Virus record (IMG/VR): IMGVR_UViG_3300043690_000026 | Coordinates: 1-54,439 of that record | DNA from: a virus | Taxonomy: Duplodnaviria > Caudoviricetes | Direction: 5' to 3' (one strand) | DNA length: 54,439 nucleotides | Shown: piece after piece, positions 27,490 to 34,857 of the stretch | Layout: every line of letters starts with the position of its first letter | Position numbering within the stretch: position 1 is the stretch's first letter | The notes under the pieces: model-generated | Databases searched by the model: none | Told to the model about the DNA's origin: nothing | What the model saw: the letters and a program-made list of their open reading frames with translations, nothing else | Position numbers and translations under genes: made by a program

Positions 27490-27748
27490 AGTGGTGCTCC
27501 TCGGGATTCTTCACCCTGGCGCCGCAATGACCGCAGACGTACTCGGTCTCATCGTGAACGTGAAATGTCGCGCCCGTCTCCCCTGCGAGTCTAGCCACGT
27601 CCCCACGGATCATCTGCCGGTTGTGTTCATTAGCCGGGTAGCCGCTGGCCTCCAGCAACTCCTCCTCGTCGATGTGCAGCCCGCCCCGATCGTCGGCGTA
27701 CAGCCCCGGCCTGATCCGTTGTAGCCCGCGCTTCCAGTCTTTGTCCAT
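27479..27748 (-). CDS. Hypothetical protein with C-terminal CxxC
   Basis: Start MDKDWK with GAGGTG RBS. Confidence 0.55.
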   Translation of the reverse strand: MDKDWKRGLQRIRPGLYADDRGGLHIDEEELLEASGYPANEHNRQMIRGDVARLAGETGATFHVHDETEYVCGHCGARVKNPEEHHCGR

Positions 27749-27750
27749 AC

Positions 27751-28116
27751 TCACCTCTCCTTCGTCGCGTTCCAGGCGTCTTCGTCCTGGTGCAGTATCT
27801 CGACCGGGCGCATTGCGCCTTTGTCTGTGAGCCTGGTCCGGACCAGATAGAACGTGTACCGCTGCCAGCTGCCGGAATTGTGCACCCGCATCGGCACCGT
27901 GAAGTCGCGATTGTCCGCCGAATGCACCGCTTGGCATTCGAACCCCTCGGATCCGAACTCGGCCGGCAGGTGCAGATCCTTGCGGATCGCGATCTCGGCG
28001 GCGGCGCAGGCCTGCGAACTAACGCCCATGTCCGGATCGCGCGCGATCTCCTCAGCAGTTTTCAGATGACAGCCCGCCAGCAGTGCGGCTGCGATTGGAA
28101 TGAATAGAAGTCTCAT
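27751..28116 (-). CDS. Lipoprotein
   Basis: MRLLFIPIAAALLAGC lipobox. Confidence 0.75.
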   Translation of the reverse strand: MRLLFIPIAAALLAGCHLKTAEEIARDPDMGVSSQACAAAEIAIRKDLHLPAEFGSEGFECQAVHSADNRDFTVPMRVHNSGSWQRYTFYLVRTRLTDKGAMRPVEILHQDEDAWNATKER

Positions 28117-28210
28117 TGTGATTGCTCTCGGAATATATCCATCATAAAAAATCGGGCCGAGGAAAATTGAGGAACCCCGGCCCGTTGCAAGTACAGAGCC
28201 TTTCCAAATC

Positions 28211-28405
28211 CTACTTCGCCAGCGCCACCACGAAGTACCCGGGCAGGCGCGGCGTCTCGTACTGCCAGCTGGTGACCGTGTACGCAACGCCCTTGTGCGA
28301 AAAGGTGTGGCCCACCGGCAATCGGCCGCGCACGGTCACAAATTCGAGCAGCGGCTCGTGAGCAGCCTGCTTACTCAGCGATTCGACGTATTCGCGGGCG
28401 GTCAT
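28211..28405 (-). CDS. Hypothetical protein
   Basis: ATGA-coupled chain. Confidence 0.6.
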   Translation of the reverse strand: MTAREYVESLSKQAAHEPLLEFVTVRGRLPVGHTFSHKGVAYTVTSWQYETPRLPGYFVVALAK

Positions 28406-28620
28406 GCCTTGGCCACCTCGATCCCCTGATCGGCCAGCAGCGACACGAGGTCATCAAAGCCCGGGTCGCCGGGCATGACCCGCACAGCTTCGCCATCCGC
28501 GCAATGCAGGCGCAGTTCTGTCACCAGATCGGTATTGCCCGAAGAGAAGAACTGAATCCGGCAAACCTGTGCCATGTTCACCGCGGCGAGTTCGGTGTTA
28601 ATCCAGCCGTTCATTTTCAT
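28402..28620 (-). CDS. Hypothetical protein
   Basis: ATGA-coupled chain. Confidence 0.6.
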   Translation of the reverse strand: MKMNGWINTELAAVNMAQVCRIQFFSSGNTDLVTELRLHCADGEAVRVMPGDPGFDDLVSLLADQGIEVAKA

Positions 28621-28814
28621 CCTCCGATCTCAGTGACATCGTGAATAAACTTCTCGCCTTCCTCGCGCGTCTTCACCGGAACAAGCATCCCGTGGCCCAC
28701 CGCGTACAGGCCGTCAGCGCGGCTCTCGATGCGGTACGGCCCGCTGGTGTCGAACTCCACTCCATCGTTGAAGGTAATCTTCATTGCGCCGCCCTCGTGT
28801 CTAATCTCCGCCAT
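28617..28814 (-). CDS. Hypothetical protein
   Basis: Coupled chain. Confidence 0.6.
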   Translation of the reverse strand: MAEIRHEGGAMKITFNDGVEFDTSGPYRIESRADGLYAVGHGMLVPVKTREEGEKFIHDVTEIGG

Positions 28815-29146
28815 CAGTACTCCTCCGCCAGCATGATGGTCAGCACGCGCGTGGTTTGCGCCGGATCTTCCGGGTGCTCACTGCCCATCTCGCATTTCTT
28901 GTCGTAGTAGTCGATTTTCCAGAAAATGCGGTGGCCGCAATGTTCGAAGCTCCCGAAGTCGTGTTCCCCGTACGGGTCATCGCCTGGCGTGAAATTGTCG
29001 AACAATTCCACCTTTTCGCGGATCTTCGACTGCTCGGCGGGATCGAAGGCACAGATCCCCGGCGTCTGTATCAGCTTGCCCGCAACGCCCATCGCGGTAC
29101 GGGCCAAATCGTTTAATTGGGCTATGCGCCCGCTGTGATTGCTCAT
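28814..29146 (-). CDS. DUF3768-family protein
   Basis: IAQLND, DPYGEHDFG, IFWKIDYYD, RVLTIMLAEEY signature. Confidence 0.9.
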   Translation of the reverse strand: MSNHSGRIAQLNDLARTAMGVAGKLIQTPGICAFDPAEQSKIREKVELFDNFTPGDDPYGEHDFGSFEHCGHRIFWKIDYYDKKCEMGSEHPEDPAQTTRVLTIMLAEEY

Positions 29147-29194
29147 ATTTATATTTTAATATTGGCAATCCCAGGACTGCTCGTTCTGATCGCT

Positions 29195-29335
29195 TCAGGG
29201 CTTCTTCGCGTCGATCAGCTTCAGTAACTCCCGCCGGTCGTGATGCTCCTGCCAGCCCAGCCACAGGTCCGCGAGTACCAGGGCAAGCCAGAGGGCGATC
29301 ATAAAGACCGTCTTGCCGCGCGGTGGCTCGATCAT
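29195..29335 (-). CDS. 46-aa single-TM peptide
   Basis: ATGA-coupled to mom-like stop; MIEPPRGKTVFMIALWLALVLADLWLGW... Confidence 0.5.
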   Translation of the reverse strand: MIEPPRGKTVFMIALWLALVLADLWLGWQEHHDRRELLKLIDAKKP

Positions 29336-30120
29336 GCGTTCTCCAATCGGGGCTGGAGCGTCGGGGTCGGAATCGAACCGCCCTCTTCGGCGTGGACCGC
29401 CGATGTTTCAGCCTGAATACTACCGACGCGCTTGCCGCGAACCATCCGCGCGCCCATCTCACCGATCGCCGAGTAAGGGATGATCGGCACCGTGAGCCGG
29501 CTGCGTGCGGCTGGGTTCAGAAAGTATATATACCGCAACTGAAAACCGTCGAGCGGTTTGAAGCCCGCCCGCTTGTAATGGTCCATGTCGGCGCCACCGT
29601 GATATTCCGTGCGCCGCGCAATCTCGTTGACCTTCCTCATGCTCGTGCGCTCTCCGACGTTCGAGATCACGGTCCCATCCGGCCCAATCCACAGCGTCGT
29701 GTTGCGCTTGATCCGCGTCAGCACGAAGCCCGCCGCGCGATAGATCGTGCCGTCGCCGCATTGCGTGGCATCCGCGAAAGAGACGATCCATTCGACCTGC
29801 GGATACTCGCGCCGCATCAGCCGCATGGCCACGCCGAGAGCGCGACTCTCGGAATTGCGCGGCAGGTTGTCGGAGAAGGCCAGCCGGTTCAATTCGAGGA
29901 ACCCGTACCAGCTGGTGCCCTCGACCAGGCCGAGGAGCTTGCGGCGGTCGAGCGAGGGGCCGAACTGCATCGCTCCCTCGAGCCGCCCCGTATTCGAGAA
30001 AACTCCCAGATGAAGTTGGGAGTTCGCGACGACCTTATGAGAGTAATGCAGCCTTCGGACAAGGGCGTTTGCATCCTGGCTCGAGATGGGTGCGACCCGG
30101 ATATCCTTTGCCCCGCTCAA
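29332..30120 (-). CDS. mom: Mom-like GNAT-fold DNA adenine modification enzyme (probable TTG start at 30120)
   Basis: HYSHK, LELNRLAF, NSESRAL, SFADATQCGDGTIYRAAGF, QLRYIYFL motifs; GGAG RBS and TTGA overlap with upstream stop. Confidence 0.8.
   Translation of the reverse strand: MSGAKDIRVAPISSQDANALVRRLHYSHKVVANSQLHLGVFSNTGRLEGAMQFGPSLDRRKLLGLVEGTSWYGFLELNRLAFSDNLPRNSESRALGVAMRLMRREYPQVEWIVSFADATQCGDGTIYRAAGFVLTRIKRNTTLWIGPDGTVISNVGERTSMRKVNEIARRTEYHGGADMDHYKRAGFKPLDGFQLRYIYFLNPAARSRLTVPIIPYSAIGEMGARMVRGKRVGSIQAETSAVHAEEGGSIPTPTLQPRLENA
29354..29429 (-). tRNA. tRNA-Gly(TCC)-like element embedded in mom-like CDS (non-canonical)
   Basis: 76 nt: acceptor GCGTCGG/CCGACGC, T73, CCA, anticodon stem TCGGC/GCCGA with TCC, GGTTCGATTCC T-arm. 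Confidence 0.75.
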
Positions 30121-31055
30121 AATAAGCTCCCTTCGGCTGGATCGTTGAACTTCCTGGAGGTTGGAACAGTCCTTCTCGTTGCAGCTGCTTTCAATTCTGC
30201 AATGCGTCGCGCTCGGACCTCTGGGTCTTTCCACTGGGCTCTTGCATCCTGAGACCGTTTGGCCCTCACTTCCGGCGTGCGACTCCACCCCAGGCTTGCA
30301 GATATCTTTGCCCTATAGCTTGGATCTTGCCAGTTTGCCGTTGCTGCACTGGAAAGTTTGGCCCTAACCTCAGGGCGGGCGCTTGCGTCCCTTATCGCCG
30401 CCGTAACCCGCGCTTTGTATTCTGGGTCCGCCCATCGCGCCGCCATGTTCGCCGCCGCCCGCTGCCTTACCTTCGGGTTTGCCCTTGCAGCTTTTAGCGC
30501 CGCAGATCGTTTTGCGATCATGGCGGGGTTTCGCACTTTTCGCGCTGGTGAAATCGGCCGCGATGCTTCCCAATAAGCCGGACTCTCTGCGGCTTTAACG
30601 AAATAATCGCTCCACGCCTCCGACGATAATTGCCATCGCCCTTCTTTTGGTACACGGGTTTGCAACCCCAATTGCTCTTGAAACAGCCACCGCGCCAACG
30701 CCTCAAACTCTTGAAGCGCCCCTGGATCACTTCTAGCTAGCTCTGGCCAGGCGAAGATTTCTTCAGCGACGGACCGGTCCTCCAGCGCAAGTTGAAGATG
30801 CTTCTCAACGGCCGCCGCCAACGCTGGCGTAGCGAATTTTAAGAGTGGCCCCAAGAGCCACACTTCATTGGGACACTGGGCGGCGTGTCTGTGTAACCGC
30901 TCGTATGGATCTTTAGTCGATCCGATTTTCACTAAGTCTCCCGGCCATCTCAATAAATAGATGTAGCCGAATGGTGCGAATCGTCCCTTAGCTTCAACTG
31001 AATGCTCGGTGAACATGGAGATAGGAGCCACGCGGATGTCTTTAGCGGTCGCCAC
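30117..31055 (-). CDS. GIY-YIG/T5orf172-type putative homing endonuclease with NUMOD3-like C-terminal repeats
   Basis: GYIYLL...VKIGSTKDPYERL; repeated W(A/Q/K)DP(E/S)(Y/V)(K/R)A. Confidence 0.75.
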   Translation of the reverse strand: MATAKDIRVAPISMFTEHSVEAKGRFAPFGYIYLLRWPGDLVKIGSTKDPYERLHRHAAQCPNEVWLLGPLLKFATPALAAAVEKHLQLALEDRSVAEEIFAWPELARSDPGALQEFEALARWLFQEQLGLQTRVPKEGRWQLSSEAWSDYFVKAAESPAYWEASRPISPARKVRNPAMIAKRSAALKAARANPKVRQRAAANMAARWADPEYKARVTAAIRDASARPEVRAKLSSAATANWQDPSYRAKISASLGWSRTPEVRAKRSQDARAQWKDPEVRARRIAELKAAATRRTVPTSRKFNDPAEGSLF

Positions 31056-31329
31056 AGCCCTCCCAGGGAACGCCCAGCAGCTGCGCTCCGAGAGCGGTGA
31101 GCGGCTGGCCGTCTTTCACATGCACGATCCACTCGGGCCGCTGCTTCTTTGCGCGCCGGACCCACTTGCGTTTGCCCGGGCCGTCGGCGGGCAGGCGCGC
31201 GAAGCCGTTCGACCGGAGCCAGCTGCGATGTACGGCCGTCGCCGTCGGCCCAAGAACCGACTTCAAATATTCCAGATGCATCCCCGCGATCCGCGCCTCA
31301 TGCCGGTGGTACTGCTTTCTGTCACTCAT
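31042..31329 (-). CDS. Basic hypothetical protein
   Basis: Start MSDRKQ overlapping upstream stop. Confidence 0.5.
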   Translation of the reverse strand: MSDRKQYHRHEARIAGMHLEYLKSVLGPTATAVHRSWLRSNGFARLPADGPGKRKWVRRAKKQRPEWIVHVKDGQPLTALGAQLLGVPWEGCGDR

Positions 31330-33529
31330 AGCGGCCCATCCCCCGCGCGACGGCCGCCGGCGCATTGTTGCTCGGGTCTGCCAGCGATTTGACCACCGTG
31401 GGCGAGCTGCGGTAATGCGCGTAATCGCAGCCGATCTCATAGGTTTGCGAGTACTGCTTCCCAGCCCATAGCGCTTCGTCCAGGTGATGCTCGAACATCA
31501 GATCGCCCCGCTGCCGATAAAGGTCGTTGCCCGTCAGGTTATACAGCCACGCCCACGCAGGGCAGAAAAGATTATTCAGACCGGAGTGATAAGTTCCGAT
31601 CCCGTTGGCTTTCGGAAGGCCGGGCCACAAAGTCGAGTAAATCAGGTTGTACACCGACCAGCCATAAACGGATGAGCCGCCCAACATAGCGCTCGGATCG
31701 TCGATCGCGGCCCAGGTCCACAGGTAATCCTGATACCAGGCCACAAACGCAGGTATCCAGGTTTTCGTGGGATCGTATTCGTAGCACATCATCAGTGCAT
31801 CAAGGCTGATCCCGTCGAAGAAGGGCTGATCGAAAATTCCTCCTTGAACGAGCTGCGCGAGATGGCCCGCCACTATACTCGCGCCGTGATCGAGATACCA
31901 ATGACGGACTCCGCTCACGTAGGAGTCCATCACCATCGCGGTGAGCATCAGGGCGGATTCTCTTTGATAATTGACCAAAGGACTCGGGTACACGTTCGCG
32001 AGAGAGTTCGCCTGCGTTTGCGCCGCGTTGACCATCAGCGCGAGGGCATCCCTGCAAGCTGCAGTCCCGTATCGCCACCAGTTCATCGCAAGCCCCGGCC
32101 CGAAGGTGCGCCAGCCCGGAATCGTGCCGTTGTTGAAAATGTAGTTGGCGTATTGGCCCGCGATGTTCTGCGATTGCAAATACCAGTTCGGATTCCCGTC
32201 ATCGAGCTGATCGCCGATCTGCAGCATCACGCGGCAGCCGTCATAAAACCAGACTTGAGACTCGACTCCGAATCCGAAGATTTGATCGGTCGGCTGATTG
32301 TATTTCGCGCCCTCCGTTGCCGCCGTACTCCAGAACTTATCGATCCCCGGAATCGCGGGAGTCGGAATGGTCGCGGGCCTCGTGATCGCCGGGATAGCGT
32401 TCACCGTGAATGCCCAAACTAAATTCCTGGTCACAGTACCGTTGTAGGAATGCAGAGGAGCGGTGACCGTATACGTTCCAGCCGGGCACGATGAATCGAT
32501 GGTCAGCCGGAGAAACGGTTGACCATTTCCCGGTATTGGAGTGATGGCGTAATAGAGCCAGTGTTTCGTTCCATCAAAATGCGGGTCCGCCCTTCCCTGC
32601 AACCAGTGCGGCGTGATATGAGCCGTTGCGGGCGAGATAATCACTTCGGAATCTTCCGCGTTCGCCCAGGTGTTGCCGCTTCCCGCGAATCCGGTTTTCG
32701 GATGCCCGGTCGCGATAATGTATAGCTCCATGCCGGGGTATGCGTGTTGCGACCCGGCTGCTCTTTCCTCCCAATCTTGCGGTCCGGTCGTCACAATAGC
32801 CGCGGATTTGAAAGCGTACCAGTTGTTGCTCTGGTAGGGCGGGTATTGATACGGATCGCCGTTGCCGCTCGCGTCTGCGAGCATCACCGCGAACCGATAA
32901 GTCGTCGAGGCCGAGAGCTTTACTGTCACCGATCTCGATGTGCGAGGGGTGTAATCGTTATCGGTCCAGATCGCCCAAGGCTGCGAGAAGGAGTTGTCTA
33001 CCTGCATGAGCACCGAGACGCAGGGCTGCTCCGTTGTCCAGGCGATCACGGCCTCGTAACTCAAAGACGCCACCACGCTCGGGACAGCGGTAAATCCGAG
33101 CGGCTCTAGCGCCTGCCCGTCGACCGTAATGGAGATTAGAAGCGGGTCGCCGGCCGCCGGGGGCTCTGGAGGCTCCGGAGAGGCCGTTTCCCTGGTTACT
33201 TCGCTCTGGACCACCACTACGCCGGCGATCAGCGTCGTGATGGTGCCATCGGGGGCTGTCACTTGCAGATCCCAGCGCATCCCTTTGCCCGCGAGGGTCT
33301 GAGTCTGCACATGCGGGATGGACAGAGTGATGTTCGGCGATTCGACCGTGGCCCCGATTTCGACTATCACGGTCGGGGCCTGGTCGGCGTAATCCTGCCG
33401 GATCTGCGCCTGCGCCGTGTACCCGGCCAGAATTTCTACGGGCGGGACGCTGGGGTCGGAGCTGGTCACCGTAACCTGCGCTGAGTAGTCGTCTCCCTGG
33501 TAGAGATGGAGGTCTGCTTTGCTAGCCAT
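31322..33529 (-). CDS. Large virion-type protein: BppU-like N-terminus, FN3/Ig-like middle, aromatic-rich putative catalytic C-terminus
   Basis: N-terminus MASKADLHLYQGDDY is paralogous to 50696..51088. Confidence 0.7.
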   Translation of the reverse strand: MASKADLHLYQGDDYSAQVTVTSSDPSVPPVEILAGYTAQAQIRQDYADQAPTVIVEIGATVESPNITLSIPHVQTQTLAGKGMRWDLQVTAPDGTITTLIAGVVVVQSEVTRETASPEPPEPPAAGDPLLISITVDGQALEPLGFTAVPSVVASLSYEAVIAWTTEQPCVSVLMQVDNSFSQPWAIWTDNDYTPRTSRSVTVKLSASTTYRFAVMLADASGNGDPYQYPPYQSNNWYAFKSAAIVTTGPQDWEERAAGSQHAYPGMELYIIATGHPKTGFAGSGNTWANAEDSEVIISPATAHITPHWLQGRADPHFDGTKHWLYYAITPIPGNGQPFLRLTIDSSCPAGTYTVTAPLHSYNGTVTRNLVWAFTVNAIPAITRPATIPTPAIPGIDKFWSTAATEGAKYNQPTDQIFGFGVESQVWFYDGCRVMLQIGDQLDDGNPNWYLQSQNIAGQYANYIFNNGTIPGWRTFGPGLAMNWWRYGTAACRDALALMVNAAQTQANSLANVYPSPLVNYQRESALMLTAMVMDSYVSGVRHWYLDHGASIVAGHLAQLVQGGIFDQPFFDGISLDALMMCYEYDPTKTWIPAFVAWYQDYLWTWAAIDDPSAMLGGSSVYGWSVYNLIYSTLWPGLPKANGIGTYHSGLNNLFCPAWAWLYNLTGNDLYRQRGDLMFEHHLDEALWAGKQYSQTYEIGCDYAHYRSSPTVVKSLADPSNNAPAAVARGMGRYE

Positions 33530-33567: not shown

Positions 33568-33759
33568 TCATTCGGCGATTTCGTAATATGCGACATCTAA
33601 GTCCTCCCTGACAAACTCTAGATCGAACCGCTGGACCGGCTTGCGCCAGCACGGGCGCAGGCTGATTACGACTCGGGCCGGCGGTCCCAGCTTCCCGTCG
33701 GGCCGCATCTCGGGCTCCACCTCGAAACGTGCGCCCACATCGAAAATCTCAGCCGTCAT
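33568..33759 (-). CDS. Hypothetical protein (63 aa)
   Basis: ATG overlaps 3' end of ParB-like gene. Confidence 0.45.
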   Translation of the reverse strand: MTAEIFDVGARFEVEPEMRPDGKLGPPARVVISLRPCWRKPVQRFDLEFVREDLDVAYYEIAE

Positions 33760-34378
33760 CGAGGTACGCCTCGCAGATCCGCGCCAGCGCGTTGCCGTTC
33801 GCATTATCGTTGTGCGTGCCTTCGAACGGCCCTTTCGCCTTGGCCGCGCCCACGGCCCGCGCCACGATCTTCGCCTGTTCGTCATGCAGCATGAAGGTCA
33901 CCTGCTGGTATGGCGCGCGCTCACCCTCGGGCAGCTCGGGGAAGCCGGTCTGCGCCACCTCCCGCATCAGCTGGTCGAGTTCGGACTGGTCGAACCCGAT
34001 CGTGGGCATGTCGAACCCAAGGTTGCGTAGCTCGAGAAGCTCCACCCCTAGCAGTTCCTCGTCCCAGCCCGCGTTTAAGGCCAGCTTGTTATCCGCGATG
34101 ATGTACGCACGCTTCTTCGCTTCCGACCAGCCCCGGGCTACCATCACCGGAGCTTCCGTGTACCCGTTTATCTCGGCCGCGCTCACGCGCCCGTGCCCCG
34201 CGATGATCCCGCCGGCCTCGTCAGCCAGCACCGGCATCGTCCAGCCCCACTCCCGCATCGATGCTGCGATCTGCTTGATCTGCTCCGGACTGTGTGTGCG
34301 GGCGTTGCGCGCATAGGGGATCAATCGCGCCAACGGCCAACGCTCCACCTTGTCCGCTGGCCATTCGAGAGTCTTCAT
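33749..34378 (-). CDS. ParB/Srx-like protein (type found N-terminal to phage DNA methylases)
   Basis: LIPYARNARTHS, IIAGHGR, AYIIADNKLALNAGWD; ATGA coupling at 34378. Confidence 0.9.
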   Translation of the reverse strand: MKTLEWPADKVERWPLARLIPYARNARTHSPEQIKQIAASMREWGWTMPVLADEAGGIIAGHGRVSAAEINGYTEAPVMVARGWSEAKKRAYIIADNKLALNAGWDEELLGVELLELRNLGFDMPTIGFDQSELDQLMREVAQTGFPELPEGERAPYQQVTFMLHDEQAKIVARAVGAAKAKGPFEGTHNDNANGNALARICEAYLDDG

Positions 34379-34857
34379 TTGACCGGCACGGGAGGTACGA
34401 GCCCCTTCTCGTGCGCTTTTTCTGCCACTTTTGTTGCCCATTCCTCCACCATCTGATCCCGCGCCCGATCCCATTCCTGTAAGAGTAGGTCGGCATCGGC
34501 TGGTTCGAACCCCCAATCTCTTAACGTCTCCTCGATCTCGACGTAGCCGAAAAGCTCGTCGCGCGCTTTACCATTTACGCCGTCAGGCTTCGCTGGTACT
34601 GCCTCATGTCTTTGACCGTGACATGCGTGGCACAAAACCTCCAGATCGTCCAAATGGTCTGGATATTCAAAGCCGCGATGCGCGTACGTTTTGTGATGCA
34701 CTGCCAGACCTTGCCCTAGCGGGAAGGGTTTCGCCCCGCACTCCTTGCAGGTGAAGGTCGCATGAAATTTGAGATAAGCAGCCAGCGAAAGCCAATATTC
34801 ACAGCGGAGAAAGTCCGCGTAAGGAAGCTTTGACGGATGTAGCAGCCGGGTGCTCAT
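34375..34857 (-). CDS. HNH endonuclease
   Basis: CKECG...VHHKTY...LEVLCHACHGQRH. Confidence 0.85.
   Translation of the reverse strand: MSTRLLHPSKLPYADFLRCEYWLSLAAYLKFHATFTCKECGAKPFPLGQGLAVHHKTYAHRGFEYPDHLDDLEVLCHACHGQRHEAVPAKPDGVNGKARDELFGYVEIEETLRDWGFEPADADLLLQEWDRARDQMVEEWATKVAEKAHEKGLVPPVPVK

Follow-up and report, generated by a model that had tools for sequence, protein, structure and literature searches.

To our knowledge, homing genes that lie within coding sequences have been thought to persist only by way of introns, inteins or the splitting of their target gene. The locus analysed here, at the mom gene of a phage from soil metagenomes, points to another way. The phage is known as a complete IMG/VR virus record with direct terminal repeats (IMGVR_UViG_3300043690_000026; 54,439 bp, all of which is referred to below as the window); in it, a predicted nuclease gene interrupts the 5' end of mom, and the start of the Mom protein is encoded on both sides of the interruption. 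We consider it probable, from the sequence and a structural model, that a free-standing homing-endonuclease gene invaded the 5' end of mom and brought with it the 5' tract of a foreign mom allele (a homing cassette with 5' carry-over). Carrying a spare gene end would be a third solution to the problem of persistence, described so far for the 3' ends of fungal mitochondrial genes, and the mom locus would be its 5' version in a bacteriophage.

Several known systems resemble this locus in part. The seg and mob homing endonucleases of T-even phages, of the GIY-YIG and HNH types, home without an intron, co-convert the flanking DNA and are sporadically distributed; they sit between genes, whereas the mom element lies inside a coding sequence, in frame, with the 5' end duplicated. 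In Aeromonas phage Aeh1, a mobE-type insertion splits nrdA into two polypeptides and its function is kept. The mom element likewise places a nuclease gene within a coding sequence without splicing and preserves the target, but here the target would be restored as one polypeptide by means of the carried start duplicate. Home-and-rescue and cleave-and-rescue drives combine a nuclease with a diverged, cleavage-resistant rescue copy of part of the target; unlike these synthetic constructs, the mom element is natural, has a protein nuclease and would rescue the first ~50 codons only, with a rescue copy whose resistance is presumed.

The nearest described system is that of the fungal mitochondrial mORFs, which, in the sections of the source drawn on here, bring along, in phase, the C-terminal part of a foreign gene copy and so restore the target gene; the native C-terminus persists beside it as a duplicate, closer to relatives than the inserted piece is, and the duplicates have diverged in DNA and are nearly identical in protein (PMC3630166). 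The hybrids given there are atp6 of Allomyces macrogynus (via its ref. 48) and atp6, atp9, cox2 and nad3 of Glomus sp. (PMC3630166). By analogy, the phage element appears to work like the mORF hybrids without being a member of their group. It shares with them an endonuclease open reading frame (ORF) joined to an in-phase foreign end of the target, and a native duplicate (copy 1 below) that is closer to relatives. It differs in carrying the 5' end and not the C-terminal or 3' end, as a mirror image, so that a new ribosome-binding site and start are needed and not a mere in-phase continuation; in that the native remnant is not silent and forms the leader and start of the nuclease; and in its bacteriophage host, its mom target and its nuclease of the T5orf172 branch. 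Genes of that branch are treated as homing endonuclease genes of phages, with vibriophage ICP1 among the hosts; they sit in or close to genes that matter to the phage and mark where genetic exchange begins and ends (Barth, Dunham and Seed 2023, PMC10448857). With the mom element they have in common the nuclease family and the repetitive make-up of their DNA-binding parts, a role that is presumed in the mom element. The portion of that paper's text consulted contains neither 'recoded' nor 'synonymous' and describes no duplicated 5' end of a target, and our literature search found no description of 5' carry-over by a homing endonuclease.

The window encodes the peptide AKDIRVAPIS at two places on its minus strand, at 31046-31017 (copy 1, GCT AAA GAC ATC CGC GTG GCT CCT ATC TCC) and at 30111-30082 (copy 2, GCA AAG GAT ATC CGG GTC GCA CCC ATC TCG). 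The copies have 22 of 30 bases in common, all eight differences fall on third positions without one amino-acid change, and the identity ends right at both edges of the 30 nucleotides. Between them lies a 939-nt ORF (30117-31055, minus strand; GTG 31055 to TGA 30117) that begins three codons ahead of the repeat and reads MATAKDIRVAPIS-MFTEHS..., whereas the database gene call for it, P0001, begins at ATG 31016. Restarted from TTG 30120, mom reads MSGAKDIRVAPISSQDANAL..., with the M-x-x-AKD spacing of those relatives that have the shortest N-termini (L005, L009 and L012 among them). By profile its product is Mom, a DNA adenine-modifying enzyme of the GNAT type: residues 7-217 match Pfam Mom PF25680 over the full length of the profile, from position 2 to position 201 of 202 (1.8e-51; 175 bits, where the cut-off is 27.1), and PHROG 1384, 'Mom-like DNA modification protein', is matched at 3.5e-47. 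The features of the locus are collected in Table 1.

Table 1. Features at the mom locus of the window, in 5' to 3' order on the minus strand, with the basis on which each was placed
Feature	Position	Strand	Basis
Upstream gene, no family match	31042..31440	-	ORF list; stop TAA 31044-31042, 11 nt within the fused ORF
Shine-Dalgarno-like GGGAGGG of the original mom start, now that of the nuclease ORF	31058..31064	-	2-3 nt 5' of GTG 31055
Resident mom 5' remnant, GTG plus 12 codons (MATAKDIRVAPIS), in-frame nuclease leader; holds copy 1	31017..31055	-	Relatives, model
Predicted homing-endonuclease gene proper (P0001), 299 codons, ATG 31016 to TGA 30117	30117..31016	-	ORF; P0121 begins at the same Met
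Predicted nuclease domain, T5orf172/GIY-YIG fold, residues ~30-157	30585..30968	-	Pfam, model, structure search
C-terminal helical repeats of the type W-x-DP-x-[YV]-[RK]-A-[KR]	30171..30539	-	Model; presumed DNA-binding module
GGGAG Shine-Dalgarno sequence for the restarted mom, within the last nuclease codons	30127..30131	-	6-nt spacer to TTG 30120
TTGA stop-start overlap	30117..30120	-	mom TTG 30120-30118; nuclease TGA 30119-30117
Hybrid mom, 262 aa (foreign 5' tract plus resident body)	29332..30120	-	PF25680, PHROG 1384
Imported foreign mom 5' tract, ~50 codons, includes copy 2	29971..30120	-	GC3, third-position break, P0255 differences
tRNA-Gly-like cloverleaf, last 70-76 nt of the mom ORF	29354-29429	-	Covariance model; same place in L003-L082

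This anatomy had in large part been read in a first-pass annotation of the same DNA, which described the twofold coding of the peptide with eight of ten codons synonymously different and none non-synonymously, a restart of mom at a TTG overlapping the endonuclease stop behind a ribosome-binding site, the takeover of mom's start by the element and the supply of a replacement 5' end. When the minus strand was re-read, the codons proved exact; the nuclease is followed by its own GGGAG and TTG for mom; and GTG 31055, behind GGGAGGG, opens an N-terminus, MATAKDIRVAPI, that is the one found in P0255, the closest Mom relative. A loose pattern for the Mom N-terminal peptide matched the six-frame translation of all 54,439 bases at two places, copies 1 and 2. 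We applied the same pattern to related mom loci from IMG/VR (L003-L082; 80 of 163 stretches found) and to two metagenome contigs (L083 and L084), and in none of these was there a second Mom-like match, many of them having another N-terminal motif and so no match at all; an extra same-strand match in L023 is unlike Mom, and a second match in L069 lies on the opposite strand.

It is scarcely credible that the arrangement is an assembly chimera or a chance repeat, with the duplication absent from real phage genomes. The record is a metagenome assembly, and Logan contigs of the runs X6, X8 and X9 break near the repeats (31049; 30003-30223), which is what such an artefact might leave. Against it, contigs of these other runs cross the left junction (X8 record 21, 30169-31304; X9 record 30, 30922-31129) and the right junction (X6 record 10, 28502-31048) without differences, so that an assembly artefact of one record cannot account for them; a fusion of the same kind occurs on an independent contig, that of P0002 (see below); and the motif is restricted to its two sites in the window. 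No joint that skips the nuclease gene was present in the contigs of X6, X8 and X9 (DNA) or X10 (an RNA library) over 27500-33000. The X10 contigs lie within the nuclease gene (30495-30645 and 30792-30942) and within mom and show no differences; the library may hold DNA, and these contigs cannot show transcripts. As to the breaks themselves, the gap runs from 30024 to 30169 in X8 and from 30003 to 30223 in X9, and X6 is broken at 31049; the inner end of the imported tract and the two repeat copies lie at these places, and the breaks could reflect co-existing variants or merely low coverage.

The 13-residue leader of the nuclease ORF belongs to mom, not to the nuclease, and carries mom's original start. 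P0255, the closest Mom protein among 5.8 billion clusters and one that starts as an ordinary Mom, agrees with the leader over 12 of 12 residues. The first-pass annotation had proposed to align the 5' end of mom with that of endonuclease-free relatives; such relatives exist (the 80 loci and P0255), and the alignment places copy 1 closer to them than copy 2, with 27 of 30 nt matching L004 and 26 of 30 matching L012, as against just 22 and 20 for copy 2. On the nuclease side, P0121 (34% identity) aligns through its residues 1-235 with query residues 14-252, that is, from the methionine of MFT onward, and in the structural model residues 1-26 have a predicted local distance difference test score (pLDDT) below 50, which places them outside the nuclease fold. 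Since the stop codon of the upstream gene lies inside the fused ORF, the original mom start overlapped that gene.

The rebuilt end of mom is of another origin. The G+C content at third codon positions (GC3) is 0.60 in mom codons 1-40 and 0.81 in the remainder, compared with 0.70-0.95 over the same codons in eight nuclease-free relatives; the nuclease gene itself has a GC3 of 0.55, against 0.78 for mom and 0.75 for the upstream gene. At third positions the window mom agrees with the eight relatives at a near-random 0.33-0.42 over codons 1-40 and at 0.56-0.69 thereafter (mean ratio 0.61, compared with 0.91 among the relatives themselves). With L003, L004 and L005, the three nearest relatives by DNA, third-position identity rises from 0.33-0.38 ahead of the breakpoint to 0.67-0.70 beyond it, and the maximum chi-square falls at codons 37-48, counted from Ala4 (permutation p 0.0005-0.0065); in none of the 28 relative-relative pairs does the strongest break lie at the 5' end. 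The protein tells the same: the window Mom and P0255 are 97% identical over residues 48-250 and 80% over residues 4-47, where P0255 is no closer to the window Mom than is any other member of the clade, and they differ at 11 places in residues 1-45 (10 substitutions and one indel) and at 6 in residues 46-258 (Fisher p = 8e-6). By these breaks in composition and identity, the nuclease gene and the first ~50 codons of mom are foreign, whereas the leader and the body of mom are resident. The foreign tract extends ~37 codons beyond copy 2, with an inner boundary that is approximate, past residue 45 and before residue 102, and is best estimated near codon 50. The replacement looks like ~50 codons of a foreign mom allele that came in with the nuclease gene, as a co-conversion or carry-over tract.

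This changes one element of the first-pass annotation, in which the second copy was a synonymously recoded duplicate of ten codons. The tract is about 50 codons long and has a nuclease-like GC3, and the divergence of the ten codons, although on the high side, stays within what natural alleles show: of 104 pairs of natural alleles with the motif, 13.5% differ at >=80% of the codons for identical residues (mean 56%). Selection for recoding was rejected on this ground, as an equal synonymous divergence arises in natural pairs. The synonymous-only pattern in the ten codons appears to reflect the conservation of the peptide throughout the family. Mu Mom, in the part of the source consulted, tolerates the loss of 10 N-terminal residues and is less active after the loss of 20 (PMC13219725), which fits a mom start that tolerates replacement.

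That the inserted ORF encodes an endonuclease, as first read from the letters, is borne out by profile and fold, and we assign the predicted protein to the T5orf172 branch of the GIY-YIG nuclease superfamily. Residues 30-96 reach 22.8 bits with Pfam T5orf172, a family of the GIY-YIG clan whose cut-off is 20; P0002 (22.0) and P0121 (21.6) also score above that cut-off, with P0250 below it at 17.1. An AlphaFold model built on a five-sequence alignment has a pLDDT of ~80-88 for residues 30-130. A structure search of 48,161 chains returned Z >=5, over model residues 22-157, for three chains only, all GIY-YIG: Slx1 twice (Z 6.1, with a root-mean-square deviation (rmsd) of 5.0 over 106 aligned residues, and Z 5.4) and HIGLE (Z 5.9, rmsd 3.2, 96 residues aligned). 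The ten best Foldseek matches are Slx1 throughout, with weak E-values from 0.19. NCBIfam gave no match for the nuclease.

C-terminal to this domain, the model has seven helices over residues 177-294, made of the repeats in Table 1. The repeat tail alone matches more than 2,000 proteins, many of which have PF01541 GIY-YIG and some of which are labelled 'group I intron endonuclease' by their source; it matches PHROG 22215 (5.5e-8), and no match to Pfam NUMOD3 or another curated DNA-binding family was found in it. We presume it to be a DNA-binding module of the kind found on GIY-YIG homing endonucleases.

Five full-length members of the nuclease family were found among the proteins searched: P0001, P0002, P0121, its cluster mate P0254, and P0250. 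The core residues of GIY-YIG type are invariant in all five. All five also end in L-F followed by no or one residue (side by side with this, the L-F codons of the window, within 30117-30131, hold the TTGA overlap, with GGGAG just 5' of it); since the window's L-F codons have this content, the conserved tail may be a restart signal for a downstream gene and not a feature of the protein. P0250 has a different extension of 14 residues before the L-F-T start of the family, possibly the leader of another target gene.

Of these relatives, P0002 bears most directly on how the locus arose. It is a protein of 349 aa, 67% identical to P0001, from another, well-diverged phage and encoded on a contig of 42,967 nt; its alignment with P0001 is unbroken from end to end. 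After an N-terminal MTTAKDLRVAPISSRDANAL it passes directly into FTEHSVEAK, with leucine in place of the window's methionine, so that its nuclease is joined in frame to 19-20 residues of Mom, at a junction other than the window's (after residue 13). Lacking a methionine at the junction, the P0002 nuclease can start there only at the Mom start. A survey of other mom loci for the same arrangement, also suggested in the first pass, thus had a divided outcome: the loose pattern revealed no such duplication in L003-L084, and a nuclease fused to a Mom N-terminus turned up in P0002.

The nuclease is sporadically distributed among related mom genes, and uninterrupted mom genes exist. By tblastn, 0 of the 80 related mom loci have a nuclease homolog; among the 78 loci where an ORF upstream of mom could be defined, none has any nuclease family there. 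Nuclease genes of the P0002 or P0121 type had no tblastn match in 50,697 phage records, and the metagenome contigs gave two distant matches only, L083 and L084, both to the repeat part; viral and genome contigs likewise did not yield the DNA that encodes P0002 or P0121.

These observations also weigh on the reading of the locus as the relic of a single illegitimate recombination, in which leader and fusion have no function and the nuclease is decaying or domesticated, for instance as a regulator, without homing at mom. We regard this as unlikely. The variable left neighbours of mom would make an illegitimate left junction plausible, the divergence of the repeat requires no selection, and a family with five full-length members is very rare; T5orf172 domains have, moreover, been domesticated in phage satellites, as the consulted parts of two sources relate (PMC8096241, PMC10448857). 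A relic is, however, hard to square with P0002, which is 67% identical and uninterrupted and yet likewise continues in frame from a Mom N-terminus, at another junction and with no start of its own. Two chance in-frame fusions would be improbable (about 1 in 9), which suggests that the fusion is expressed, and the invariant core in all five members argues against decay.

We find it very improbable that the ORF belongs to a self-splicing group I or group II intron in mom, in frame with exon 1 and spliced from 31017 to 30081. In organelles, an intron ORF is often fused to the exon before it, and deleting 31016-30082 would indeed join codon 13, the last of copy 1, in frame to the codon after copy 2. 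However, an Rfam scan of 28800-31800 on both strands, with E up to 10, returned zero intron families and four weak matches of other kinds, in line with the non-splicing character that the first-pass annotation had given the element. The ORF occupies the entire interval and leaves no non-coding room in which a ribozyme core could lie; copy 2 comes with a GGGAG and a TTG, the usual M-x-x-AKD spacing and unchanged amino acids, all needless for the 3' end of an intron; and the foreign tract continues far past copy 2. An intein was excluded, as the inserted ORF ends in TGA, mom is in another frame and the Pfam scan contained no Hint or intein family.

Carry-over by a homing endonuclease thus remains the reading that we favour, and the following steps could have produced the locus:

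(i) In the cassette, a foreign mom 5' end of ~50 codons, equipped with a GGGAG and a TTG start of its own, would directly follow the nuclease gene; the whole would have been inserted in frame behind codon 13 of the resident mom.

(ii) The resident ribosome-binding site, GTG and 13 codons would now drive the nuclease, which would be made as MATAKDIRVAPIS-nuclease.

(iii) Mom would be rebuilt from the foreign N-terminal part and the resident body and translated from the TTG at the nuclease stop, by its own Shine-Dalgarno sequence, by termination-reinitiation at TTGA, or by both. The restart may be translationally coupled.

(iv) The nuclease would cut nuclease-free mom genes near codons 13-20, as the two junctions suggest, and repair would copy the cassette into the cut allele.

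(v) The right crossover would fall within mom, here near codon 50, and the left junction would form in the first mom codons, either through short homology to the donor's leader or as an illegitimate join.

(vi) The carried tract would render the occupied allele resistant to cleavage; its divergence might, as the first-pass annotation supposed, also limit deletion by recombination.

As mom sequence flanks the element on both sides, it could home between phages whose neighbouring genes differ. The genes upstream of mom in the window have no homolog across the 80 related loci, which is the situation where mom alone offers homology. A stronger version of this scheme can be drawn up, in which the element is a natural 'home-and-rescue' element specialised on mom: it would cut within the conserved first 13-20 codons of nuclease-free mom genes, the mom sequence on either side would let it jump between phages with nothing else in common at the locus, the carried tract would be its immunity determinant, the nuclease would stand under mom's translational control and mom would be made by TTGA reinitiation, and the differing junctions would be scars of independent invasions. 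We put this forward tentatively, and think it somewhat doubtful as a whole.

Several points weigh against homing with 5' carry-over. The case is read from sequence, predicted fold and comparison. The T5orf172 scores clear the cut-off by little, and structural similarity is modest as well (Z 5.4-6.1; Foldseek E >=0.19). The junctions differ between the two phages, which fits two events or one event and a later deletion, and P0002 and P0121 are known here from protein alone. An isogenic empty allele was not recovered as DNA, P0255 being known from protein only. The synonymous divergence of the ten-codon repeat, being within the range of natural alleles, gives no sign of selected recoding. With the five more distant relatives (L006-L010), and in most relative-relative pairs, the strongest third-position break lies not at the 5' end of mom but at its 3' end, at codon 219-239, and this 3' break is owed to the tRNA-like element described below.

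In this 5' version of gene-end carriage, the displaced native start would be turned into the expression signal of the nuclease. If the nuclease is active, the arrangement would account for the passage of such elements between phages whose neighbouring genes are unrelated and for the origin of mosaic boundaries within genes, and it would offer a natural model for gene drives that join a nuclease to a rescue copy. For annotation it means that the nuclease ORF has been called too short (P0001, from an internal ATG) and that the start of mom is a TTG within the preceding gene.

A second feature of the gene lies at its other end. The last 70-76 nt of the mom ORF fold into a tRNA-Gly-like cloverleaf that has an acceptor stem of 7 bp, an anticodon arm, a T arm with a loop of the TTCGA type and, in some versions, a D arm, and that closes with one discriminator base followed by CCA. 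A covariance model trained on 15 copies gave 82 matches, spread over the window and all but one of the 80 loci (80 of 81 sources) and lying without exception on mom's strand at the mom 3' end; two loci have two copies in tandem at the end of mom (L015:2799-2936 and L016:4792-4929). Over 65 distinct sequences in the model-fitted alignment, 93.4% of cells pair, compared with 36-40% in slid controls, and two-sided changes occur in 15 of 21 pairs (248 cells, against 24-49 in the slid controls); the unfitted alignment of 15 sequences gives 92.1% pairing against 34-45% and 41 two-sided cells against 4-8.

Acceptor pairs 1-3 are G-C, C-G and G-C in 64-65 of the 65 sequences, 77 of the 82 matches end in T-CCA, and the anticodon triplet is ACC in 38 of 82 and TCC in 36 of 82, both of them glycine anticodons; these acceptor pairs, the T-CCA end and the two anticodons are identity elements of bacterial tRNA-Gly. 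ARAGORN called no tRNA in the window, Rfam gave only a sub-threshold tRNA-Sec match on the element, and the mom region of phage Mu contained no match to the covariance model (best 6.4 bits, E 0.94). Mu Mom uses Gly-tRNA-Gly as the donor in DNA adenine modification, as stated in the part of the source consulted, whose main text, within that part, does not mention 'tRNA-like', 'minihelix' or 'embedded' (PMC13219725). Because Mu Mom uses this donor and the element covaries as a tRNA-Gly-like structure, the RNA in mom looks like an undescribed part of the modification system, and it may serve Mom as a dedicated glycine carrier encoded in cis.

The wider setting is that of a temperate tailed phage and not of a Mu-like transposable phage, since the window encodes a large terminase, a portal, a head protease, a serine integrase and a tape-measure-like protein with a lytic domain; all its long ORFs are on the minus strand. 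The upstream gene has no match in Pfam, PHROG or NCBIfam. Promoter-like sites (3, with 1.4 expected) and terminator-like sites (3, with 3.2 expected) stand at chance. A ParB_N protein of ~200 aa is encoded directly 5' of mom in 53 of the 78 related loci (among L004-L082), by an ORF whose stop overlaps the start of mom; this suggests that the ParB-like gene and mom form a conserved pair. The only ParB_N-like match in the window scores 18.6 bits, below the cut-off (34118-34300, within 33749-34516, minus strand), and is separated from mom by a gene of 776 aa, a small gene and the nuclease gene.

Downstream, a 46-aa ORF with a hydrophobic stretch (29195-29335, minus strand; no Pfam or PHROG match) overlaps the mom stop. 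It is followed by an ORF of 110 aa (28814-29146, minus strand) that is kept 3' of mom in L005, L009 and L011 with 67-75% identity.

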